From an uncultured Candidatus Micrarchaeota archaeon (GTDB lineage: Archaea; Micrarchaeota; Micrarchaeia; Burarchaeales; Fermentimicrarchaeaceae): a DNA stretch of 64,000 nt. The position numbers were made by a program, and so were the translations under genes. Where the stretch lies: assembly GCA_963760615.1 (NCBI GenBank), contig CAVXDX010000008.1, positions 64,001 to 128,000 on the forward strand, in the 5' to 3' direction. How positions within the stretch are numbered: position 1 is the first letter of the stretch; each line of letters begins with the position of its first letter. The notes beneath the pieces were generated by a model. The model had not been told where the DNA came from and did not search any database. It saw only the letters and a list, made by a program, of their open reading frames with translations. Positions 38,808 through 45,656 of this stretch are shown here, in pieces.

Positions 38808-38874
38808 ACGAGGATTTTTTCACTCTGCACATTTATTAATGTAAGGTTTAAATACAGAAAATGAGCAAATTTAG

Positions 38875-39447
38875 ATGGTGGTGTTTATGGAAAAAGTTAA
38901 AGTTGATGGCAAAAGCACCATGAAGCTTGTAGAATTCGACACTATCAAGGTTGCAAGAGAAAAGGTGCCCAGCCAAGTGCTTGATGTTACGATGGAAAAG
39001 AAGGGTGAGATAGTCAGGAGAGGCAAGCTTTTTTTTGATATCCCTTCTCGAACTGACAAGCTGCGCCTTGACCTTGATATAGGATCTGGATGGGAATCTA
39101 ACCTGACTATACTTTTCAATGCAAAACTCGAGAAGGGAGTGGATACGCCACAGAAATCACCGCCTACCCTTTTAGAAGTTAAAATTGCAAGCCAGATGCC
39201 TACGCTGAGTATGGCTAGAAAACTTTTGGAGGAAGAACCAACGAATGCGCCTAAGGTCCCTGTTGTGAAGCTGGAATTGGTGAATATAGCCGGCGTTGGA
39301 ACACACTCCAAATACTTTGACCTTGAAATTGGGAAAATAAAAACAAAGCTCGAGGACGCCATGAATAATACTCCGGAAGGGCGGGAACTGGTAATGACAT
39401 TTGAATCTAGGCGTTCCGAGCTAAAACGAGCTGGAATACTGCACTAA
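38875..39447 (+). CDS. Orphan protein
   Basis: 190-aa ORF with the same promoter motif as 37571. Confidence 0.7.
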   Translation: MVVFMEKVKVDGKSTMKLVEFDTIKVAREKVPSQVLDVTMEKKGEIVRRGKLFFDIPSRTDKLRLDLDIGSGWESNLTILFNAKLEKGVDTPQKSPPTLLEVKIASQMPTLSMARKLLEEEPTNAPKVPVVKLELVNIAGVGTHSKYFDLEIGKIKTKLEDAMNNTPEGRELVMTFESRRSELKRAGILH

Positions 39448-39477
39448 ACATTTATTTTTAATTCTAGTTCTAACGTG

Positions 39478-39514
39478 CAGGGAGATTAGAAAGAACCGCA
39501 AGGTTCCTCTCCTG
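39478..39514 (+). other. Conserved 3' stem-loop, copy 2
   Basis: CAGGGAGA-TTAGAAA-GAACC-GCAA-GGTTC-CTCTCCTG with GNRA loop. Confidence 0.5.
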
Positions 39515-39540
39515 AGCCAATATTAACCTTTCCAGTTCCG

Positions 39541-39760
39541 GCACATCTCGCACAAGAAACAGCACTTTCATCTCGGGCATAAGCAATACCGGTGAAAACA
39601 GTGATTTCACCTCGGCAGTAAATCACTGGTAAATCGCCATAAAACTCGGTAAATCCCTCTTTCTCGCAAGCGTATAAATTACGTCGGGTAAATGCGGTAA
39701 ATCCGCTCGCGTTGCGGAAAGGTCTGCCGTCGGAGTGATGGCAGTAGCGGATTTACTTTT
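39541..39760. other. Repeat-rich, structured non-coding segment
   Basis: GTAAAT(C) at 39618, 39629, 39649, 39688, 39697, inverted at 39750; 11-bp inverted repeat 39697..39707/39746..39756 enclosing an 8-bp stem. Confidence 0.5.
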
Positions 39761-39787
39761 CAGGAAGCTCCGGGTATTCCAGCAGGA

Positions 39788-40651
39788 CTACCTTCGGGAT
39801 ATTCCCAAGCTTGTCGATTGCTCTTTCTTCAGCATCTTCGAGTTGAAATGGTCGTAAATCCTTATCACAGTGTCTGCTGCCGAAGCGACCACCTGTTCAT
39901 ACTCCTCCCTGCTTATCTCGCACTTTTCATCTACTCTGTGCGGAAGGTGGAACACGAACCCTTCTAGGGCTACCTCGTAATGCTCATACAGCTCCTTGGC
40001 TATTGTCTTGTCGTCAGGATAGTCAAATCTTCGCAGAGATGCCCTAAGCTTGTCAATCCTTCTCAGAGGCTCGGCTCCAGGTGAACTCTGCCAAAGAGTT
40101 ACATTAATGCCGGGTATTTTCAAATACTCCTCAAAGACTTCCTTTGAGTCTGCTTCGACGTAAACAATTGGGTTGCTTTTCAGCTCGGTAGGCTTCGAGT
40201 TGCTGTAAACTAAATAAGGAGCATGTGTTGCTGGGCTGTAGTGTATGTCTACAATGACGCTTGCACGCTCATCCCTTGCAGTTCCTAGCATTTCATTGTA
40301 AACTAGCAGATTATCGAAATTCTCCTTTTTGAAGAGCCTGTCCTGTTTCCTCATGCCGTAATCCTTTCCTGTTTTCATCCAGTGCAGGTCTATGACATCA
40401 GATGCATGCGTAAACGATTTCAGTTCGCAGACCTTTATGTCCCTCTCACCCTTGATTTTTTGAATTCGTTTCGCAACATCTTCCGTGAACTGCCTCTCAG
40501 GAGTGTGGGCGCCCCATGTCACGAGCATCGTTATGTATCTCCTTGCTTCCCCGACGTCCTGCGCGGCTTTCTCGAATTCTTTCTTATTCAGAATAGTCTT
40601 TATAGGTACGCTCCCCTCACCAGTCTCTGCGGTTTTGTGAATTCCATCCAT
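39788..40651 (-). CDS. Orphan protein, possible M14/AstE-like zinc hydrolase fold
   Basis: TWGAHTPE (HxxE) and IVDIHY motifs. Confidence 0.65.
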   Translation of the reverse strand: MDGIHKTAETGEGSVPIKTILNKKEFEKAAQDVGEARRYITMLVTWGAHTPERQFTEDVAKRIQKIKGERDIKVCELKSFTHASDVIDLHWMKTGKDYGMRKQDRLFKKENFDNLLVYNEMLGTARDERASVIVDIHYSPATHAPYLVYSNSKPTELKSNPIVYVEADSKEVFEEYLKIPGINVTLWQSSPGAEPLRRIDKLRASLRRFDYPDDKTIAKELYEHYEVALEGFVFHLPHRVDEKCEISREEYEQVVASAADTVIRIYDHFNSKMLKKEQSTSLGISRR

Positions 40652-40726
40652 GCCTGAATTATGCCTTTTCTTCTATTTAAACCCTAGAGAAGTCTATAAA
40701 GATTGTTATAAGGTAACTCCGGGAAC

Positions 40727-41737
40727 CTATCGCTCGACCAGCTCAACCCTCAAAAGTTTATTTTTTATGAACGAGTCCAAACGATCGGAAAGCTCACCTC
40801 CCAATCCGCTCGAGCTCATCCCAGACATTTTCAGCTCCTCTTGAAGCTTCCAATCTTCTAAATGCCCCCGCCCTCCATTTGCCCGGTCCAGCTCCACAAT
40901 CAGCTTTTCTATCTCTCCCAGCCCTCCCTCCCTCTCGAATACTATTTCGTGCCATTTAGCTTCAAAAATTCTGGATGCTTCCTCAGGAGTTATAAAGCCC
41001 CTCTGGTCTATCCTATGCTCGATTTCAATAAACGCTTCCCCTATGATGGAAGGAAGCTTGCGTATTTCAGCATCAAATTCCGCCCTCTTCCCGCGTTCAT
41101 ACTTTATTCTTGTCATTTTCAGCGACTCCTTCTTCGGAGGTGATTCCAGCAAATGTATGTCGGTCAGCTGCCCCAGGCTTATCCCCTGGTCCTCCAGATT
41201 CTTTACATTTGTGGAGATGGTATCCAGTCGGGTCTTGTTGACGAACTTTACTATATCCGCCATGGGGATCCGCGTCTCTTCCTTCAGCATGTTTATTATA
41301 TCCCTTTCAACCTCATCAAGAAAACTGCTGAATTCCGCAGGCGCTTTTGTCAGGAGGCCCTGCCGGGCGTACTCCGCTGGGTTCCTCCCTCGCGTTTCCA
41401 GAGCCATTATGTTAGCCTCAAGGTTAATCGGGGTTGCCCCTAGGAGCGACAGCGAGGGAATGGAGCATATCTTGTGCCTATCAAAAATCTGCATATTCTT
41501 CTCAATCTTATCCATTGAAGCGTGCTTTAGAAGGTTGCTTATGCCCTCAACGGAAGCACTCTCCACTCTGCTTTTTATTATCCGGATAGTCTCCCTGTCT
41601 CCCTTCGGGCGGCTGTCTGCTAAGGCCTTTGCATCACCCCAGCGCATGTAAAGGTCTCTCATCAGCCATTTTTCAAACTCCCCTCTGCTCATAAGCCTGG
41701 TATCCTTCCCTTCAGTTTTGACCTGCTCGGCGCACAT
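40727..41737 (-). CDS. Orphan helical-repeat protein (mTERF-like), paralog of 32192..33439
   Basis: LETRGRNPAEYAR vs LKDRGRDVKEYAR; VKFVNKT vs VKLVNKT. Confidence 0.7.
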   Translation of the reverse strand: MCAEQVKTEGKDTRLMSRGEFEKWLMRDLYMRWGDAKALADSRPKGDRETIRIIKSRVESASVEGISNLLKHASMDKIEKNMQIFDRHKICSIPSLSLLGATPINLEANIMALETRGRNPAEYARQGLLTKAPAEFSSFLDEVERDIINMLKEETRIPMADIVKFVNKTRLDTISTNVKNLEDQGISLGQLTDIHLLESPPKKESLKMTRIKYERGKRAEFDAEIRKLPSIIGEAFIEIEHRIDQRGFITPEEASRIFEAKWHEIVFEREGGLGEIEKLIVELDRANGGRGHLEDWKLQEELKMSGMSSSGLGGELSDRLDSFIKNKLLRVELVER

Positions 41738-41805
41738 GGTTAGATTATGGCTTTTTCGATATTTAAGCTTGTTCGATTAACACCGGCAAATCGTAACTTT
41801 CGGTT

Positions 41806-41823
41806 ATGTAACCATGGTTACAT
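41806..41823. promoter_or_regulatory. Perfect palindrome ATGTAACCATGGTTACAT
   Basis: Upstream of the 41737 promoter; 16-bp core recurs at 45085. Confidence 0.65.
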
Positions 41824-41831
41824 CTAACCTC

Positions 41832-42884
41832 TCAACCCATCTTATCAGGAAGCTTCGGTGCCTTCCTTATCAGCTCGTCAATGTCGGTTATGCCTGTCTT
41901 AAACTTCTCCAGGCTTACCCCATACATCTTCACTTCCTTCTGGCCCACCACAACAAGATTAGCCTCCTCTATTCCTAGAAACAAGCCCCTCGCTTTGCAT
42001 CTCTTTTCAAAATCATCCAATCTCTCTTTACCAACTATTGCCTGCAATGTGTAATAATCCCTGAAACCCTCGCTGTATCTCCTTGCCTTGCCTGCTTCGT
42101 CCCTCCATACGTCAAAATTCAAATATTTATCCTGAGGGTGATCATAGTCCCCCATCCCATGTTTATGTTTATAAAATGCAGGGAGAGGAGTTGCTATTTT
42201 ATCCATAAAACTTATAGCATAAAACGCCCTGACAAATGCATCCTTGCTGCTGAGCAATTCAGTCTCGGCGAAAGTGGCTTTGCCTTCGCTGTACCTCTGC
42301 ATAGCCCTCCGCAGCCTTTTTGCATCCTCACCCCCAGTACGGAATTTATGTAAATCCTCCCAAAAAAGAGCCAGCCTACGGGCACTTTCATCACGTATAT
42401 GGTCCATCTCGTGCAATATTGCTCCAATCGACGAAATGGCGGATTCCTGCGCGTAATACAGCACTCGGGTGCCGTCCTTCTCACGGCTTCCATGCCAATC
42501 TCCGTCATAAGATTTGAGTATTCTCAAACCTTGAGTTTCCATCCCATGATTTTTCTTTACATACTCAAGTACCTGCATAAAGTGATCCCTTGACTGGATT
42601 GAGAGGGGCAAATTGTTCTCTTCAGCAAAGTGGTTATCAAGATACCGAACTAGCGGGCTGTTGCCTAACCGGAACATTCTGCCTGCCTTTATAGTCTCGC
42701 TGTATCTGTACGGATCCTTTATTTCCTTCAGCCTCTCTCTCGCCCAGTCTCCCATCCACGCCTTTACTTCCTTTTGTTTCTCCAATGTGCCCAGCGCCTC
42801 ATCAGCTATCTTCCAGCATTTTTCATAGAGTCCCTTGGCTTCTTCGCTTAAAACCAGCTCGCTTGACTTTGTAGCTGTTACCAT
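41832..42884 (-). CDS. Orphan protein with HExxH zincin-like motif
   Basis: GAILHEMDH; no signal peptide. Confidence 0.7.
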   Translation of the reverse strand: MVTATKSSELVLSEEAKGLYEKCWKIADEALGTLEKQKEVKAWMGDWARERLKEIKDPYRYSETIKAGRMFRLGNSPLVRYLDNHFAEENNLPLSIQSRDHFMQVLEYVKKNHGMETQGLRILKSYDGDWHGSREKDGTRVLYYAQESAISSIGAILHEMDHIRDESARRLALFWEDLHKFRTGGEDAKRLRRAMQRYSEGKATFAETELLSSKDAFVRAFYAISFMDKIATPLPAFYKHKHGMGDYDHPQDKYLNFDVWRDEAGKARRYSEGFRDYYTLQAIVGKERLDDFEKRCKARGLFLGIEEANLVVVGQKEVKMYGVSLEKFKTGITDIDELIRKAPKLPDKMG

Positions 42885-42936
42885 GCCTAAATTATGCCTC
42901 TTTTGATATATTAAGATTACTTTGGAAGTTGGAATC

Positions 42937-43012
42937 TGAACTCAAAAGTAACTGCCCGCCCTTGGCATCCTGAACTGAAATGTTAATGCCCAGCTGTAGC
43001 TTTGAACTGAAA
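42937..43012 (+). repeat. Three TGAACT(C/G)AAA direct repeats
   Basis: Copies at 42937, 42971, 43003. Confidence 0.5.
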
Positions 43013-43024
43013 TAGTCAAGAACC

Positions 43025-43159
43025 TTAATATACTCCTGAATAACAGACCACCTTTTTTATCTTTCTAGTTCCAACCGTTCCGTCAGGAAGAATAAATGCC
43101 TTATATCTAGCCCTTCGCTTCTTTTCCCGCTTATAAATGCAACCTCTTGGAGCTTTCAT
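43025..43159 (-). CDS. Small basic protein (44 aa)
   Basis: MKAPRGCIYKREKKRRARYKAFILPDGTVGTRKIKKVVCYSGVY; GAGGTG SD; below ORF-track cutoff. Confidence 0.5.
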   Translation of the reverse strand: MKAPRGCIYKREKKRRARYKAFILPDGTVGTRKIKKVVCYSGVY

Positions 43160-43222
43160 TTATACCACCTCTATTTTTTAACTTCTTTTTTTGTTAATTC
43201 ATCTTTTTGTTTCGTCATGATT

Positions 43223-43654
43223 TCACTCCCACAATTTTTTAATTACCTCATCAACAGTTATCGTTTCAAAAATTGGGCAGTCCTTTTTTTCAAAGTCTAT
43301 TATCTTCTGTATCTTTTCCCTGTTCCATTTTTCTACTCCTCTGAATAAGTTATCTGGGCCGATAGCACAGAAATCAGGTCTTTCCTTATCCCAAACCGAG
43401 CAGTAATATTTTCCGTCTTTCATATATAGTTTAGCACACTCTTTTTTGAATGTTATCTGCTTCATGTCGAGTCCATCCCCAAATGTAAAAGGCGTGTCCT
43501 CTGTGATCTCTGTGATAATTGTATTATCGAGCATCCATCTAAACCTAAGTGCGGAGTCTAAAGTATCGTATAGAGTATATTCCTTGCAACACTTGGCACA
43601 TCTTTGGCATATCTCCGAGTTTGCCAATTTGCTTTTGTTCCCGATTATTGTCAT
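43223..43654 (-). CDS. YkgJ-like cysteine-cluster protein
   Basis: CQRCAKCC...CAKL...CSVWDKERPDFC; ATGA-coupled to the TBP-like gene. Confidence 0.75.
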   Translation of the reverse strand: MTIIGNKSKLANSEICQRCAKCCKEYTLYDTLDSALRFRWMLDNTIITEITEDTPFTFGDGLDMKQITFKKECAKLYMKDGKYYCSVWDKERPDFCAIGPDNLFRGVEKWNREKIQKIIDFEKKDCPIFETITVDEVIKKLWE

Positions 43655-43965
43655 CTGCTCACCTTCTTGGGGACTGGCAGAGGTTTTGTATGGGGAGCCA
43701 GTAGCTTTATCGCTCGCTCTAAGGCATACTTCACTTCTCTCTCATTCTTGCAGCCTGTGCATATTACCTTGCCGTTCTTGAAGAGCAGAAGAGATGCCTT
43801 TGGATCTTTGAACTTGAGTATTGCACCTGGGAACTGCTCTGGCTCATACTCCACATTCCTGATTTTGCTGGCAATAGTGTAAAGGTCAAGCTCCACTCCC
43901 AGATTGGCTGAAGCTACTATGTTCTCTATCTTGAACGATGGATCAATTGTAAGTTTCTTTGTCAA
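43651..43965 (-). CDS. Single-repeat TATA-binding protein homolog (half-TBP)
   Basis: KIENIVASANLGVELDL, EYEPEQFPGAI, LLLFKNGKVICTG; only one TBP repeat (104 aa); TTG start. Confidence 0.88.
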   Translation of the reverse strand: MTKKLTIDPSFKIENIVASANLGVELDLYTIASKIRNVEYEPEQFPGAILKFKDPKASLLLFKNGKVICTGCKNEREVKYALERAIKLLAPHTKPLPVPKKVSR

Positions 43966-44065
43966 TGAAACACCTTCTCTGCCCCTTCCAGCCCATTTCT
44001 ACTTAAAACCACCTGTTAGATGCCTCCCACCATACTCTCACTCATCAAATAGTTCTGTTCTGTAG

Positions 44066-44090
44066 TATATTAAGATTGCTTTGGCTTGAG
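44066..44090 (-). promoter_or_regulatory. 25-bp element identical to 5243..5267
   Basis: Reverse complement CTCAAGCCAAAGCAATCTTAATATA upstream of the half-TBP operon. Confidence 0.7.
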
Positions 44091-44096
44091 AATAAG

Positions 44097-45047
44097 CTAA
44101 ACCCTCCCTTCCTTCAGATCTCTCAGATACTCATCCGGATGATCTATGTGCCTCATGGTAAGAGGAGGATGTTTAATCGTGTATTTGATTGGGTTTTCCC
44201 CGGTTTTTTTCTCTATATACCCCAAGAACGCCATGCCCTTGGAATTTAGAGGTTGCTCCTCGTCCTCCTTAAGCAGTGTGGACTGTCTCATAGCCTTGTA
44301 GGAGTAACCAAATTTGCTTATAACCCGGTACCCGGCGTAGTATGCAATGCCCTCGTCGAAAGCTTGCCGGGCGTCAATCCCGTCTCTGACTATCTGCCAT
44401 CTCGCCTCCATAGCTTCCTCATCCCCTGCTAGTTCAGAGTGGATTTTTACCTGCTCACGTATGGAGTCTACAGACCAGTTCGCAACCTCAGGAATATTCT
44501 CCTTGATTGTTTGGTGCAGCTGCTCGTGGACAAAAGTGTTAAGGACAAGAAACCTCTCGATTCTCTTCCCTTCCTCGCTGTTTGGGCTGACTAGTTGCAC
44601 TGCGCACTGCAGTCTAAACAGCTCTTCAATGTTGTCCCGCACAATATATGCGGTATTTTGCTCAGAGCTGAAAAAACCGGAAGTAGCTCTAAAAATGCTG
44701 GGCATATCGAAATCAACACCTTCCATTATCTCCCGTCTGAGCTCTTCGAGGAGAGTCTTATCGGACATGAACTTTTTGGATGTCGAGTAGAACTCTTCCT
44801 GCGTCATTTTCGTCGCTTCATCCCTGCTAATGAATTTTATGCTTATCTCGCCTTTTTTAAAACTCGTACTTACTTTCATCCCTGTTATGTCTTCGATACG
44901 TTTTGCAACTTGCATTATTTCGTATTTCGAAGGCACGTATAGCTCGGTTGGTGGAGAAGCAGATTCGCTATTAGTTTTATCTGCACCATGAAGTCTGATT
45001 ATATGGTCCTTTATGTTCGTATCAGCTGATGGCTTAACAGTCCACAT
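44097..45047 (-). CDS. Orphan protein with gluzincin-like HExxH...E motif
   Basis: TFVHEQLH ... FDEGIAYY; no signal peptide. Confidence 0.75.
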   Translation of the reverse strand: MWTVKPSADTNIKDHIIRLHGADKTNSESASPPTELYVPSKYEIMQVAKRIEDITGMKVSTSFKKGEISIKFISRDEATKMTQEEFYSTSKKFMSDKTLLEELRREIMEGVDFDMPSIFRATSGFFSSEQNTAYIVRDNIEELFRLQCAVQLVSPNSEEGKRIERFLVLNTFVHEQLHQTIKENIPEVANWSVDSIREQVKIHSELAGDEEAMEARWQIVRDGIDARQAFDEGIAYYAGYRVISKFGYSYKAMRQSTLLKEDEEQPLNSKGMAFLGYIEKKTGENPIKYTIKHPPLTMRHIDHPDEYLRDLKEGRV

Positions 45048-45084
45048 GCTGAGATTATGCCTCTTTCAATATTTAAGCTTGCTT

Positions 45085-45100
45085 TGTAACCATGGTTACA
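45085..45100. promoter_or_regulatory. Perfect palindrome TGTAACCATGGTTACA
   Basis: A few bp upstream of the TATA box of the 45047 gene, between divergent orphan genes. Confidence 0.65.
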
Positions 45101-45191
45101 TTCTCCGCCAAATCTCATCTTCGCTTTGGTATTAGCCTGTTTCTCGGCAGATTTAAATATCAGAAATGGCGTAATTTAAGTGCTGAGATTT

Positions 45192-45644
45192 ATGGTAACA
45201 ACTGTGATGGATGAACCAAAAATGCGGGTAGAAATGCAAAGGAAATACTTTAAAGAAAAAGATTACAAAGTGGTAGAAGTTCCTAGAAGCAGGCTGGGTG
45301 AACTGTCCCACATATGGAGCCTGCTGCCAAGGATCGGGTATGACGAAGGCAAACCTCAGCCCAGTATGATTCCTGTCGGTTTTGTAAAAAAAGAAGACGA
45401 AAAATGGCATCTTTTGGGTGTAGTAAAGCATCAGGATGTATTGCATCATGTACCAGGATCATCGGATTTGTTTGTAGAACCGCTAACAGGGAAATTAAGC
45501 ATAACTCCAAAACCCCAAGACGATATAACACGAAATATGGTTGAGGTTCTTGTTGCAAGGCTTCCAGAGCCATTAAAAACCAAGCTGTATGAAGCAGCCC
45601 TAAAGCATGCGGATTTAGGCAGGGATATGTTCGTAAAGGATTAG
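45192..45644 (+). CDS. Orphan protein
   Basis: About 150-aa ORF behind TTTAAATA...GGCGTAATT. Confidence 0.65.
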   Translation: MVTTVMDEPKMRVEMQRKYFKEKDYKVVEVPRSRLGELSHIWSLLPRIGYDEGKPQPSMIPVGFVKKEDEKWHLLGVVKHQDVLHHVPGSSDLFVEPLTGKLSITPKPQDDITRNMVEVLVARLPEPLKTKLYEAALKHADLGRDMFVKD

Positions 45645-45656
45645 GACACCGCCAGA

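Follow-up and report, generated by a model that had tools for sequence, protein, structure and literature searches.

A half-size TATA-binding protein gene on an orphan-gene island of a Micrarchaeota genome

TATA-binding protein (TBP) serves as the textbook pseudo-symmetric protein, and its canonical form, with two repeats in one polypeptide, is thought to have descended from a homodimer. We analyzed a gene of 104 codons (43651..43965, minus strand) that encodes one TBP repeat, located in a 64,000-nt stretch of contig CAVXDX010000008.1 (hereafter the window) from an uncultured Candidatus Micrarchaeota archaeon, and compared it with the closest described systems. In the literature that we searched, single TBP-domain proteins are known from Halobacteria and Thermococcales only, and in each case a full TBP is present as well (PMC3597702). 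In Halobacterium NRC-1, tbpA–D are carried on pNRC100 and tbpF on pNRC200 (PMC2121645), and TbpA of Halobacterium has one TBP domain and closely resembles the TBP of its host (PMC3597702). The monopartite proteins of Thermococcales, which are ~91–97 aa long except for two outliers in T. sibiricus, contain one TBP-like domain (PMC3597702, Table 3); they are highly diverged from TBP, have no known function and always occur beside a normal TBP (PMC3597702).

As functional analogues, the TBPs of haloarchaeal megaplasmids and the TBP genes of haloarchaeal tailed viruses (HRTV-9 gp39 and HJTV-2) come closest to the present case, since there too a chromosomal TBP gene is supplemented by extra ones that reside on mobile or accessory DNA. 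However, haloarchaeal hosts keep two-repeat TBPs together with several TFBs and the viral gene encodes 179 aa, whereas both copies in our genome are half-size and only one TFB gene was found; these extra TBPs were only 38–46% identical to our query. In contrast to the Thermococcales proteins, from which it is set apart on the basis of their published description, the window protein is a close relative of TBP with its binding residues intact. A literature search found nothing on a half-size TBP in Micrarchaeota, and what is new here is a paralogue that moves between species, the cassette that carries it and a divergence limited to its surface. As a separate observation, the Halobacterium plasmid PHS2 contains a single-repeat match (NC_010369.1 61007-61282, L140; 40% identity over 88% of the query) at a position where the PLSDB table lists no coding sequence.

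A single-repeat TBP gene and its lineage

The window gene starts with TTG at 43965 and ends with TGA at 43651–43653. Its product matched the TBP profile PF00352 with an E-value of 4.2e-30 (103.8 bits against a Pfam cut-off of 22.9), and the match placed residues 10–90 on profile positions 1–83 of 85, which counts as a repeat in Pfam. An earlier note on this DNA had read the 104-aa open reading frame (ORF) as exactly one TBP repeat that stands alone and is not the remainder of a broken two-repeat gene. Both readings were borne out, as no second repeat was found near the gene in a six-frame PF00352 scan of the whole genome and the stop-to-stop frame is only 115 aa long. The gene does not have the two tandem repeats in one polypeptide that define a canonical TBP, and against the NCBIfam TATA-box-binding protein equivalogs (the PRK00394 set) the protein scored at best 96.3 bits, far below the cut-off of 270, because only half of the model is covered. 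A near-identical public copy (P0024) is annotated as ‘hypothetical protein’, exposing an annotation gap through which half-size TBPs, falling well under the NCBIfam TBP cut-offs, go unnamed in public data. The same gene, 101–106 aa long, was recovered in independent assemblies, which makes an assembly artefact unlikely; these comprise G002–G005, JGI contigs and ENA contigs, where the genus consists of the present genome (G000) and its congeners G001–G005.

The AlphaFold monomer (pLDDT 88.7) placed strands at residues 16–21, 24–26, 38–40, 48–53, 56–61 and 66–72 and helices at residues 28–34 and 75–92, and had the fold of a TBP lobe, a five-stranded sheet with the short helix H1 and the long helix H2. 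A Foldseek search with this model returned 44 matches at E <= 0.001, all of which were TBPs, with template-modelling (TM) scores of 0.68–0.78 normalised to the query; the top structures came from archaeal and eukaryotic TBPs, only half of which was covered by each alignment, and the best match was one lobe of the M. jannaschii TBP 2z8u. Against canonical archaeal TBPs (M. jannaschii 2Z8U, S. acidocaldarius 1MP9 and P. woesei 1AIS/1PCZ), the repeat fold was the same, with 43–45% identity in structure-based alignments and a root-mean-square deviation of 0.8–3.1 Å over 76–95 aligned columns.

The DNA-contacting residues are also those of canonical TBP. Alignment to the solved TBPs showed that the whole contact set is kept, namely the Asn and Val in S1, the two intercalating Phe, the Leu in S4 and the Val/Ile and Thr in S5, and the DNA-facing residues named in the earlier note were all present. 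In the 41-sequence alignment, N15, V17, F45, L60, F62, I68 and T70 were invariant or nearly so; we take them to be the equivalents of N69, V71, F99, L114, F116, V122 and T124 of yeast TBP. The stirrup residues E41 and E43 were conserved, and the segment EYEPEQFPG matches the C-terminal stirrup of P. woesei TBP (1AIS) in every residue; its glutamates, in the E-x-E ahead of the first Phe, presumably form the stirrup on which TFB/TFIIB docks. Together with the predicted fold, these features indicate a TBP-family protein that would work like half a TBP and not as a canonical TBP.

The genome (1.14 Mb in 16 contigs, 91% complete), whose nearest public relatives are labelled Candidatus Micrarchaeota, contained only two TBP loci in the PF00352 scan and in a search with the protein itself, the window gene and a gene on contig C4 (C4:102562-102861, 100 aa), both single-repeat and 80% identical to each other. 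Since the C4 gene adjoins L21e, the polymerase subunit gene Rpb4/Rpo4 and DUF655, we refer to it as the housekeeping copy. The canonical full TBP that the earlier note proposed to look for elsewhere in the genome was found by neither the six-frame scan nor the protein search; the main TBP is itself single-repeat. We also searched 40 relatives, in line with the note’s proposal to look for one-repeat TBPs across archaea. All 27 same-order genomes with a match had single repeats only, in frames of 100–145 aa apart from one fragment at a contig end, and with the seven intact copies in the genus described below, conserved one-repeat homologues do exist. Frames of ~190–200 aa with two adjacent repeats were confined to some of the class's other families. 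In a wider class sample, 386 of 401 genomes had a TBP-repeat match; this tally takes in two genomes flagged as unpublished (G297 and G098), on which no other statement here depends. A whole archaeal order appears to run transcription with a one-repeat TBP.

In the two-repeat TBPs within the class (L025 in G030, L130 in G035, L131 in G040, P0019 and P0022), the repeats were 60–85% identical to each other with long identical stretches, compared with inter-repeat identities of 43–50% in the other two-repeat proteins from the same search. This high likeness fits a secondary re-duplication or gene conversion of a single-repeat gene better than retention of the ancient form. An origin of the half-size TBP from the N- or the C-terminal repeat in particular found no support, as the window protein scored nearly equally well in HMMER against both repeats of solved archaeal TBPs. 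Nor could a donor be named from a repeat tree built with DPANN sequences only, lacking non-DPANN outgroups, in which the N- and C-terminal repeats of each lineage grouped together.

Second single-repeat genes were also seen outside the genus. In family f13, 77 of 78 genomes had matches, nearly all of them listed with two, and the one f13 genome that we examined (G032) has two diverged single-repeat TBP genes at separate loci (L128 and L129; G032:C2:23390-23635 and G032:C2:169719-169964), each ~45% identical to the query. This pair is a candidate for an obligate heterodimeric split TBP, judging from the sequences. Within the same order, G015 of family f7 carries a second and more diverged single-repeat TBP (L122, G015:C93:1526-1771) besides L121 (G015:C6), and weak second TBP-like matches were listed in G010, G011 and G018, those of G010 and G011 being divergent and not recovered by BLAST. 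Accessory half-size TBPs may have arisen more than once.

The accessory copy and its transfer between species

The TBP genes of the genus form two groups. The housekeeping group has one gene of 100 aa in each of G000–G005, always preceded by the housekeeping TATA box TTTATAAATAAA. The accessory group, to which the window gene belongs, has zero to two genes of 101–106 aa per genome, and its seven genomic copies are distributed over G000 and G002–G005; none was found in G001, an assembly that is 91% complete. Non-ATG starts are common in both groups, the accessory copies starting with TTG or GTG. Ten positions are fixed differently between them: the accessory copies have T at position 2 (A in the housekeeping copies), T at 6 (I, K or N), A or S at 10 (K or T), K at 56 (R), V at 67 (I), C at 72 (S), N at 74 (S), Y at 80 (A, I or N), L at 82 (I) and R at 84 (Q). 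The C-terminal tail reads PVPKK in six of the seven accessory copies and PVKK in the housekeeping copies. The two groups do not differ at any of the seven DNA-contact positions or at the stirrup glutamates. The dimer interface predicted below takes in positions 6, 10, 67 and 82, of which 67 and 82 each contact F11 of the partner subunit in the model and carry conservative replacements (I to V and I to L). Outside it, on the solvent-exposed side of helix 2, are positions 72, 74, 80 and 84.

In a maximum-likelihood tree, the accessory copies were placed apart (bootstrap 83), outside a housekeeping clade formed by the genus and its sister genus (bootstrap 85). The distant family f12 fell inside the accessory clade, probably as a long-branch effect. 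The C4 copy sits in both the L21e–Rpo4–DUF655 locus and the housekeeping clade and the window gene in neither. The latter is an accessory paralogue confined to this genus, and the ten residues that are fixed differently between the clades point to a long history of its own. The ratio of nonsynonymous to synonymous divergence (dN/dS) was 0.15–0.3 among the seven accessory copies and 0.02–0.05 for the housekeeping gene; for comparisons between species, the accessory values spanned 0.07–0.36. The accessory gene is under purifying selection, weaker than that on the housekeeping gene.

The window gene is located in a 6.8-kb island of orphan genes (38825..45656) between scpA and a serine-hydrolase/Trm5 gene pair. 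The earlier note had placed it in the middle of an orphan-gene cluster, and indeed the island genes around it had no Pfam or PHROG family except for a weak helix-turn-helix match. The island is present at this site only in our genome and is missing in the five congeners: scpA directly abuts the hydrolase gene in G001 and G003, and there is no room for an insert in G002, G004 and G005. Within the island, a 1.07-kb cassette of three genes (42907..43975), which encode the TBP, a CxxCxxCC protein and a 44-aa protein, is near-identical across species, with nucleotide identities of 96% to G004:C12:1515-2582 and 97% to G005:C62:1-983. The flanking core genes (pyrF, scpB, scpA, Trm5, EamA and the leucyl-tRNA synthetase gene LeuRS), by comparison, are 74–87% identical, mostly 78–84%, and the housekeeping TBP gene is 78–83% identical.

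In the same genomes, synonymous divergence (dS) between species was 0.11–0.33 for the accessory gene and 0.46–1.3 for the housekeeping gene. Gene conversion between the two copies is not the cause of the low accessory values, given that dS between the accessory and housekeeping genes within one genome was 0.8–1.5. The low dS, the near-identical cassette and the site-unique island together place the accessory gene in the flexible genome and show that it moved recently. Its surroundings differ from copy to copy: an accessory copy of G005 adjoins homologues of the genes at 12.9–14.9 kb of the window, another lies beside the arginyl-tRNA synthetase gene ArgRS on a JGI contig, and a third beside a nucleotidyltransferase/HEPN pair on an ENA contig. 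We conclude that the window gene is genuine and intact, is under selection, and represents an accessory copy, mobile by horizontal transfer, of the half-size TBP specific to this lineage.

A 19-nt direct repeat brackets the transferred cassette. Its copies at 44066-44084 and 42907-42925, the latter in the promoter of the next island gene, are 95% identical and constitute the part of successive island promoters that holds the TFB recognition element (BRE) and the TATA box. Judging from this arrangement, recombination between promoter boxes could move the cassette. We considered a provirus or plasmid origin and set it aside, as the island had no PHROG family, no att-like repeat at its flanks, no adjoining tRNA gene and no relative in IMG/VR.

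Predicted pairing and competing explanations

The explanation that we favour, and consider probable, is that the window gene encodes a functional extra half-TBP subunit, restricted to the genus, borne on the island and recently exchanged, which pairs into a DNA-binding saddle. A half-size TBP would be used in this lineage in place of the two-lobed protein, with the housekeeping subunit supplied from C4. Two subunits would pair by strand S1 and helix 2 and so rebuild the ten-stranded saddle, to which each would give one pair of intercalating phenylalanines and one TFB-docking stirrup. Whereas the two lobes of a canonical TBP belong to one chain, the saddle here would be a dimer with exact two-fold symmetry. 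Archaeal promoter polarity is generally held to come from contact between TFB and the BRE, and in a dimer with two equivalent TFB sites it would have to come from there. As the interface differs from that of the housekeeping copy only conservatively, mixed dimers would be as likely as accessory homodimers. DNA and TFB binding would be unchanged by the accessory subunit and the upper surface of the saddle would differ between subunits, so that the exposed face of helix 2 (C72, N74, Y80 and R84) could change the partner or regulator that sits on top.

Structure prediction is consistent with such pairing. The homodimer, predicted with our own alignment, reached an interface score (ipSAE) of 0.72 against 0.01 for the best of three controls. 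Of proteins with solved structures, 20 of 30 pairs but only 1 of 23 single chains attained this mark. At least 97% of contacts agreed between runs, and pLDDT was at least 87. The predicted interface consists of an antiparallel S1–S1' pairing with the dyad at I16, complemented by S5 and helix 2, and reproduces the inter-lobe interface of canonical TBP. The result may reflect the model’s memory of a much-solved fold and is to be read as likeness and not as binding. The homodimeric alternative TBP suggested in the earlier note therefore stands in part: an alternative copy exists and a symmetric homodimer is predicted for it, but the main TBP to which it would be the alternative is not a canonical two-repeat protein.

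Several observations weigh against this explanation. The accessory dN/dS is several-fold above that of the housekeeping copy, indicating weaker selection. The tree, built from 87 columns, has weak internal support and does not carry a deeper placement of the accessory copies. At 91% completeness, a two-repeat TBP could have escaped detection in this one genome. Finally, no integrase, att site or viral hallmark that would point to a vehicle of transfer was found in the island, and no relative was found on IMG/VR viral contigs.

A bolder version of the favoured explanation, which we put forward tentatively and think more likely wrong than right, is that the gene is a mobile subunit of a general transcription factor and that island and host half-TBPs mix into three saddles (host–host, host–island and island–island). 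The three species would differ only on their upper surface. If this were true, island genes might tune host transcription initiation through mixed saddles, and one could observe in nature how the change from a symmetric homodimer into an asymmetric, two-lobed TBP begins, with a duplication and then divergence in the partner-binding face of one subunit.

The earlier note had also suggested that the protein could serve a dedicated promoter class, that of the neighbouring orphan genes. Each island orphan gene is indeed preceded by a leaderless promoter consisting of TTAA(A)TA, 8 nt, GGCATAAT, 4–6 nt and the ATG (40647-40685, 41733-41771, 42880-42918 and 45043-45081, and inverted at 45153-45179), with CTTAATATA as the island TATA box. 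An accessory saddle specialised for these promoters would be in keeping with haloarchaea, where multiple TBPs serve subsets of genes (PMC2121645), and with the island-type TATA/BRE that drives the accessory gene itself. Strict copies of the promoter numbered eight in our genome, one to five in each of G001–G004, one in G006 and one in G019 of another family, with none in the other 33 relatives, so that promoter and accessory TBP are both essentially confined to this genus; this shared distribution, however, amounts to a single phylogenetic event and carries no statistical weight. The two do not coincide within the genus either, since G001 has the cassette promoters but no accessory copy was found in its 91% complete assembly, whereas G005, with its two accessory copies, shows no strict match to the promoter. 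Moreover, the protein differs from the housekeeping copy at none of its DNA-contact residues, the distinguishing GGCATAAT is situated near -10 and is not part of the TATA site bound by TBP, and there is only one TFB gene. We consider a dedicated promoter class improbable and the suggestion unsupported.

The same note had raised an anti-TBP. Such a subunit would poison the housekeeping subunit, or titrate it away, in mixed dimers without activity, and a selfish element would profit. An interface nearly equal to that of the housekeeping copy makes mixed dimers plausible, and the gene is mobile. An inhibitor, however, could drop both intercalating phenylalanines, the Asn, Val and Thr contacts and the TFB-docking glutamates, yet all of these are invariant under purifying selection, and the protein has no extra domain; we regard this reading as disfavoured and very unlikely. 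It is likewise highly doubtful that the gene is a recent copy lacking any role, whether a neutral passenger of the island DNA or a duplicate in decay, or that it arose by misassembly of a two-repeat gene: its constraint is relaxed relative to the housekeeping copy, its copy number varies from zero to two per genome and the two copies of G002 (acc1 and acc2) differ from each other with a dN/dS near 1 on very few changes, but the gene is intact, and its Shine–Dalgarno site and start are conserved, in every one of the seven genomic copies as well as in several metagenome clusters, dN/dS between species is purifying, the ten clade-specific residues speak of a long separate history and the same gene recurs in many independent assemblies.

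Under the favoured explanation of an extra half-TBP subunit, the accessory and housekeeping proteins, which share their length class and binding residues, are distinguished by the separate clade, island location, exchange between species, island-type promoter, long leader and weaker constraint of the accessory copy. In one genus, a second one-repeat gene passes from species to species and encodes a protein whose exposed surface has diverged. The two proteins form a natural pair with which a symmetric dimer on TATA DNA, polarity with two TFB-docking stirrups and mixed dimers could be tested, and the case also bears on whether mobile DNA carries core initiation factors in DPANN archaea.

Leader, operon and other island features

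A Shine–Dalgarno-like AGGTG (43971..43975, minus strand) lies 5 nt before the TTG start of the TBP gene, and the arrangement AGGTGTTTC(A/G)-(T/G)TG is invariant in all seven accessory copies, the leaders of which fall into three unrelated classes. The likely operon promoter is an island-type BRE/TATA, CCAAAGCAATCTTAATATA on the gene strand (44066..44084, minus strand), of the box type found in the cassette promoters. Between the TATA box and the start codon is a leader of ~100 nt (43966..44065, minus strand), 92–94% identical to those of G002_acc1 and G003_acc. Its RNA fold had a z-score of -2.6 with 3 of 200 shuffles equally good, a marginal result that is too weak for a claim of structure.

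The leader contains a 9-codon ORF (44016-44045, minus strand; MSESMVGGI) whose first codon comes 28 nt after the TATA box begins, exactly at the position of the ATG in the neighbouring leaderless genes. G002_acc1 and G003_acc have retained this ORF in their leaders. It could represent a leaderless upstream ORF, or else what is left of a gene start that was replaced.

Downstream of the TBP gene is the gene of the 143-aa CxxCxxCC protein (43223..43654, minus strand), a YkgJ-like member of PF03692 (E-value 1.8e-5, 25.8 bits against a cut-off of 23). As the earlier note had pointed out, its start overlaps the TBP stop in ATGA, so that the two genes are translationally coupled, and the same overlap is found on JGI contigs; the protein is 98.6–99.3% identical to its counterparts in G004 and G005. 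The small operon ends with the gene of a very basic 44-aa protein without a family match (43025..43159, minus strand; AGGTGG before the ATG), which is 95–97.5% identical in G004 and G005 and 73% identical in G002, where it is located upstream of a TBP copy.

Two island proteins of 350 and 316 aa, encoded at 41832-42884 and 44097-45047 on the minus strand, each contain an HExxH motif and belong to no Pfam or PHROG family. Distant homologues of them (32–33% identity) adjoin the accessory TBP copies in G003 and G002. We also found a perfect 16-bp palindrome, TGTAACCATGGTTACA, with five copies in the 1.1-Mb genome, two of them in the island (41807-41822 and 45085-45100) and the others on contigs C12, C14 and C16. 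It is found upstream of TATA boxes of the island type, at a distance of ~20 nt, and one accessory TBP copy of G005 has it upstream as well; it could be an operator or a recombination site.
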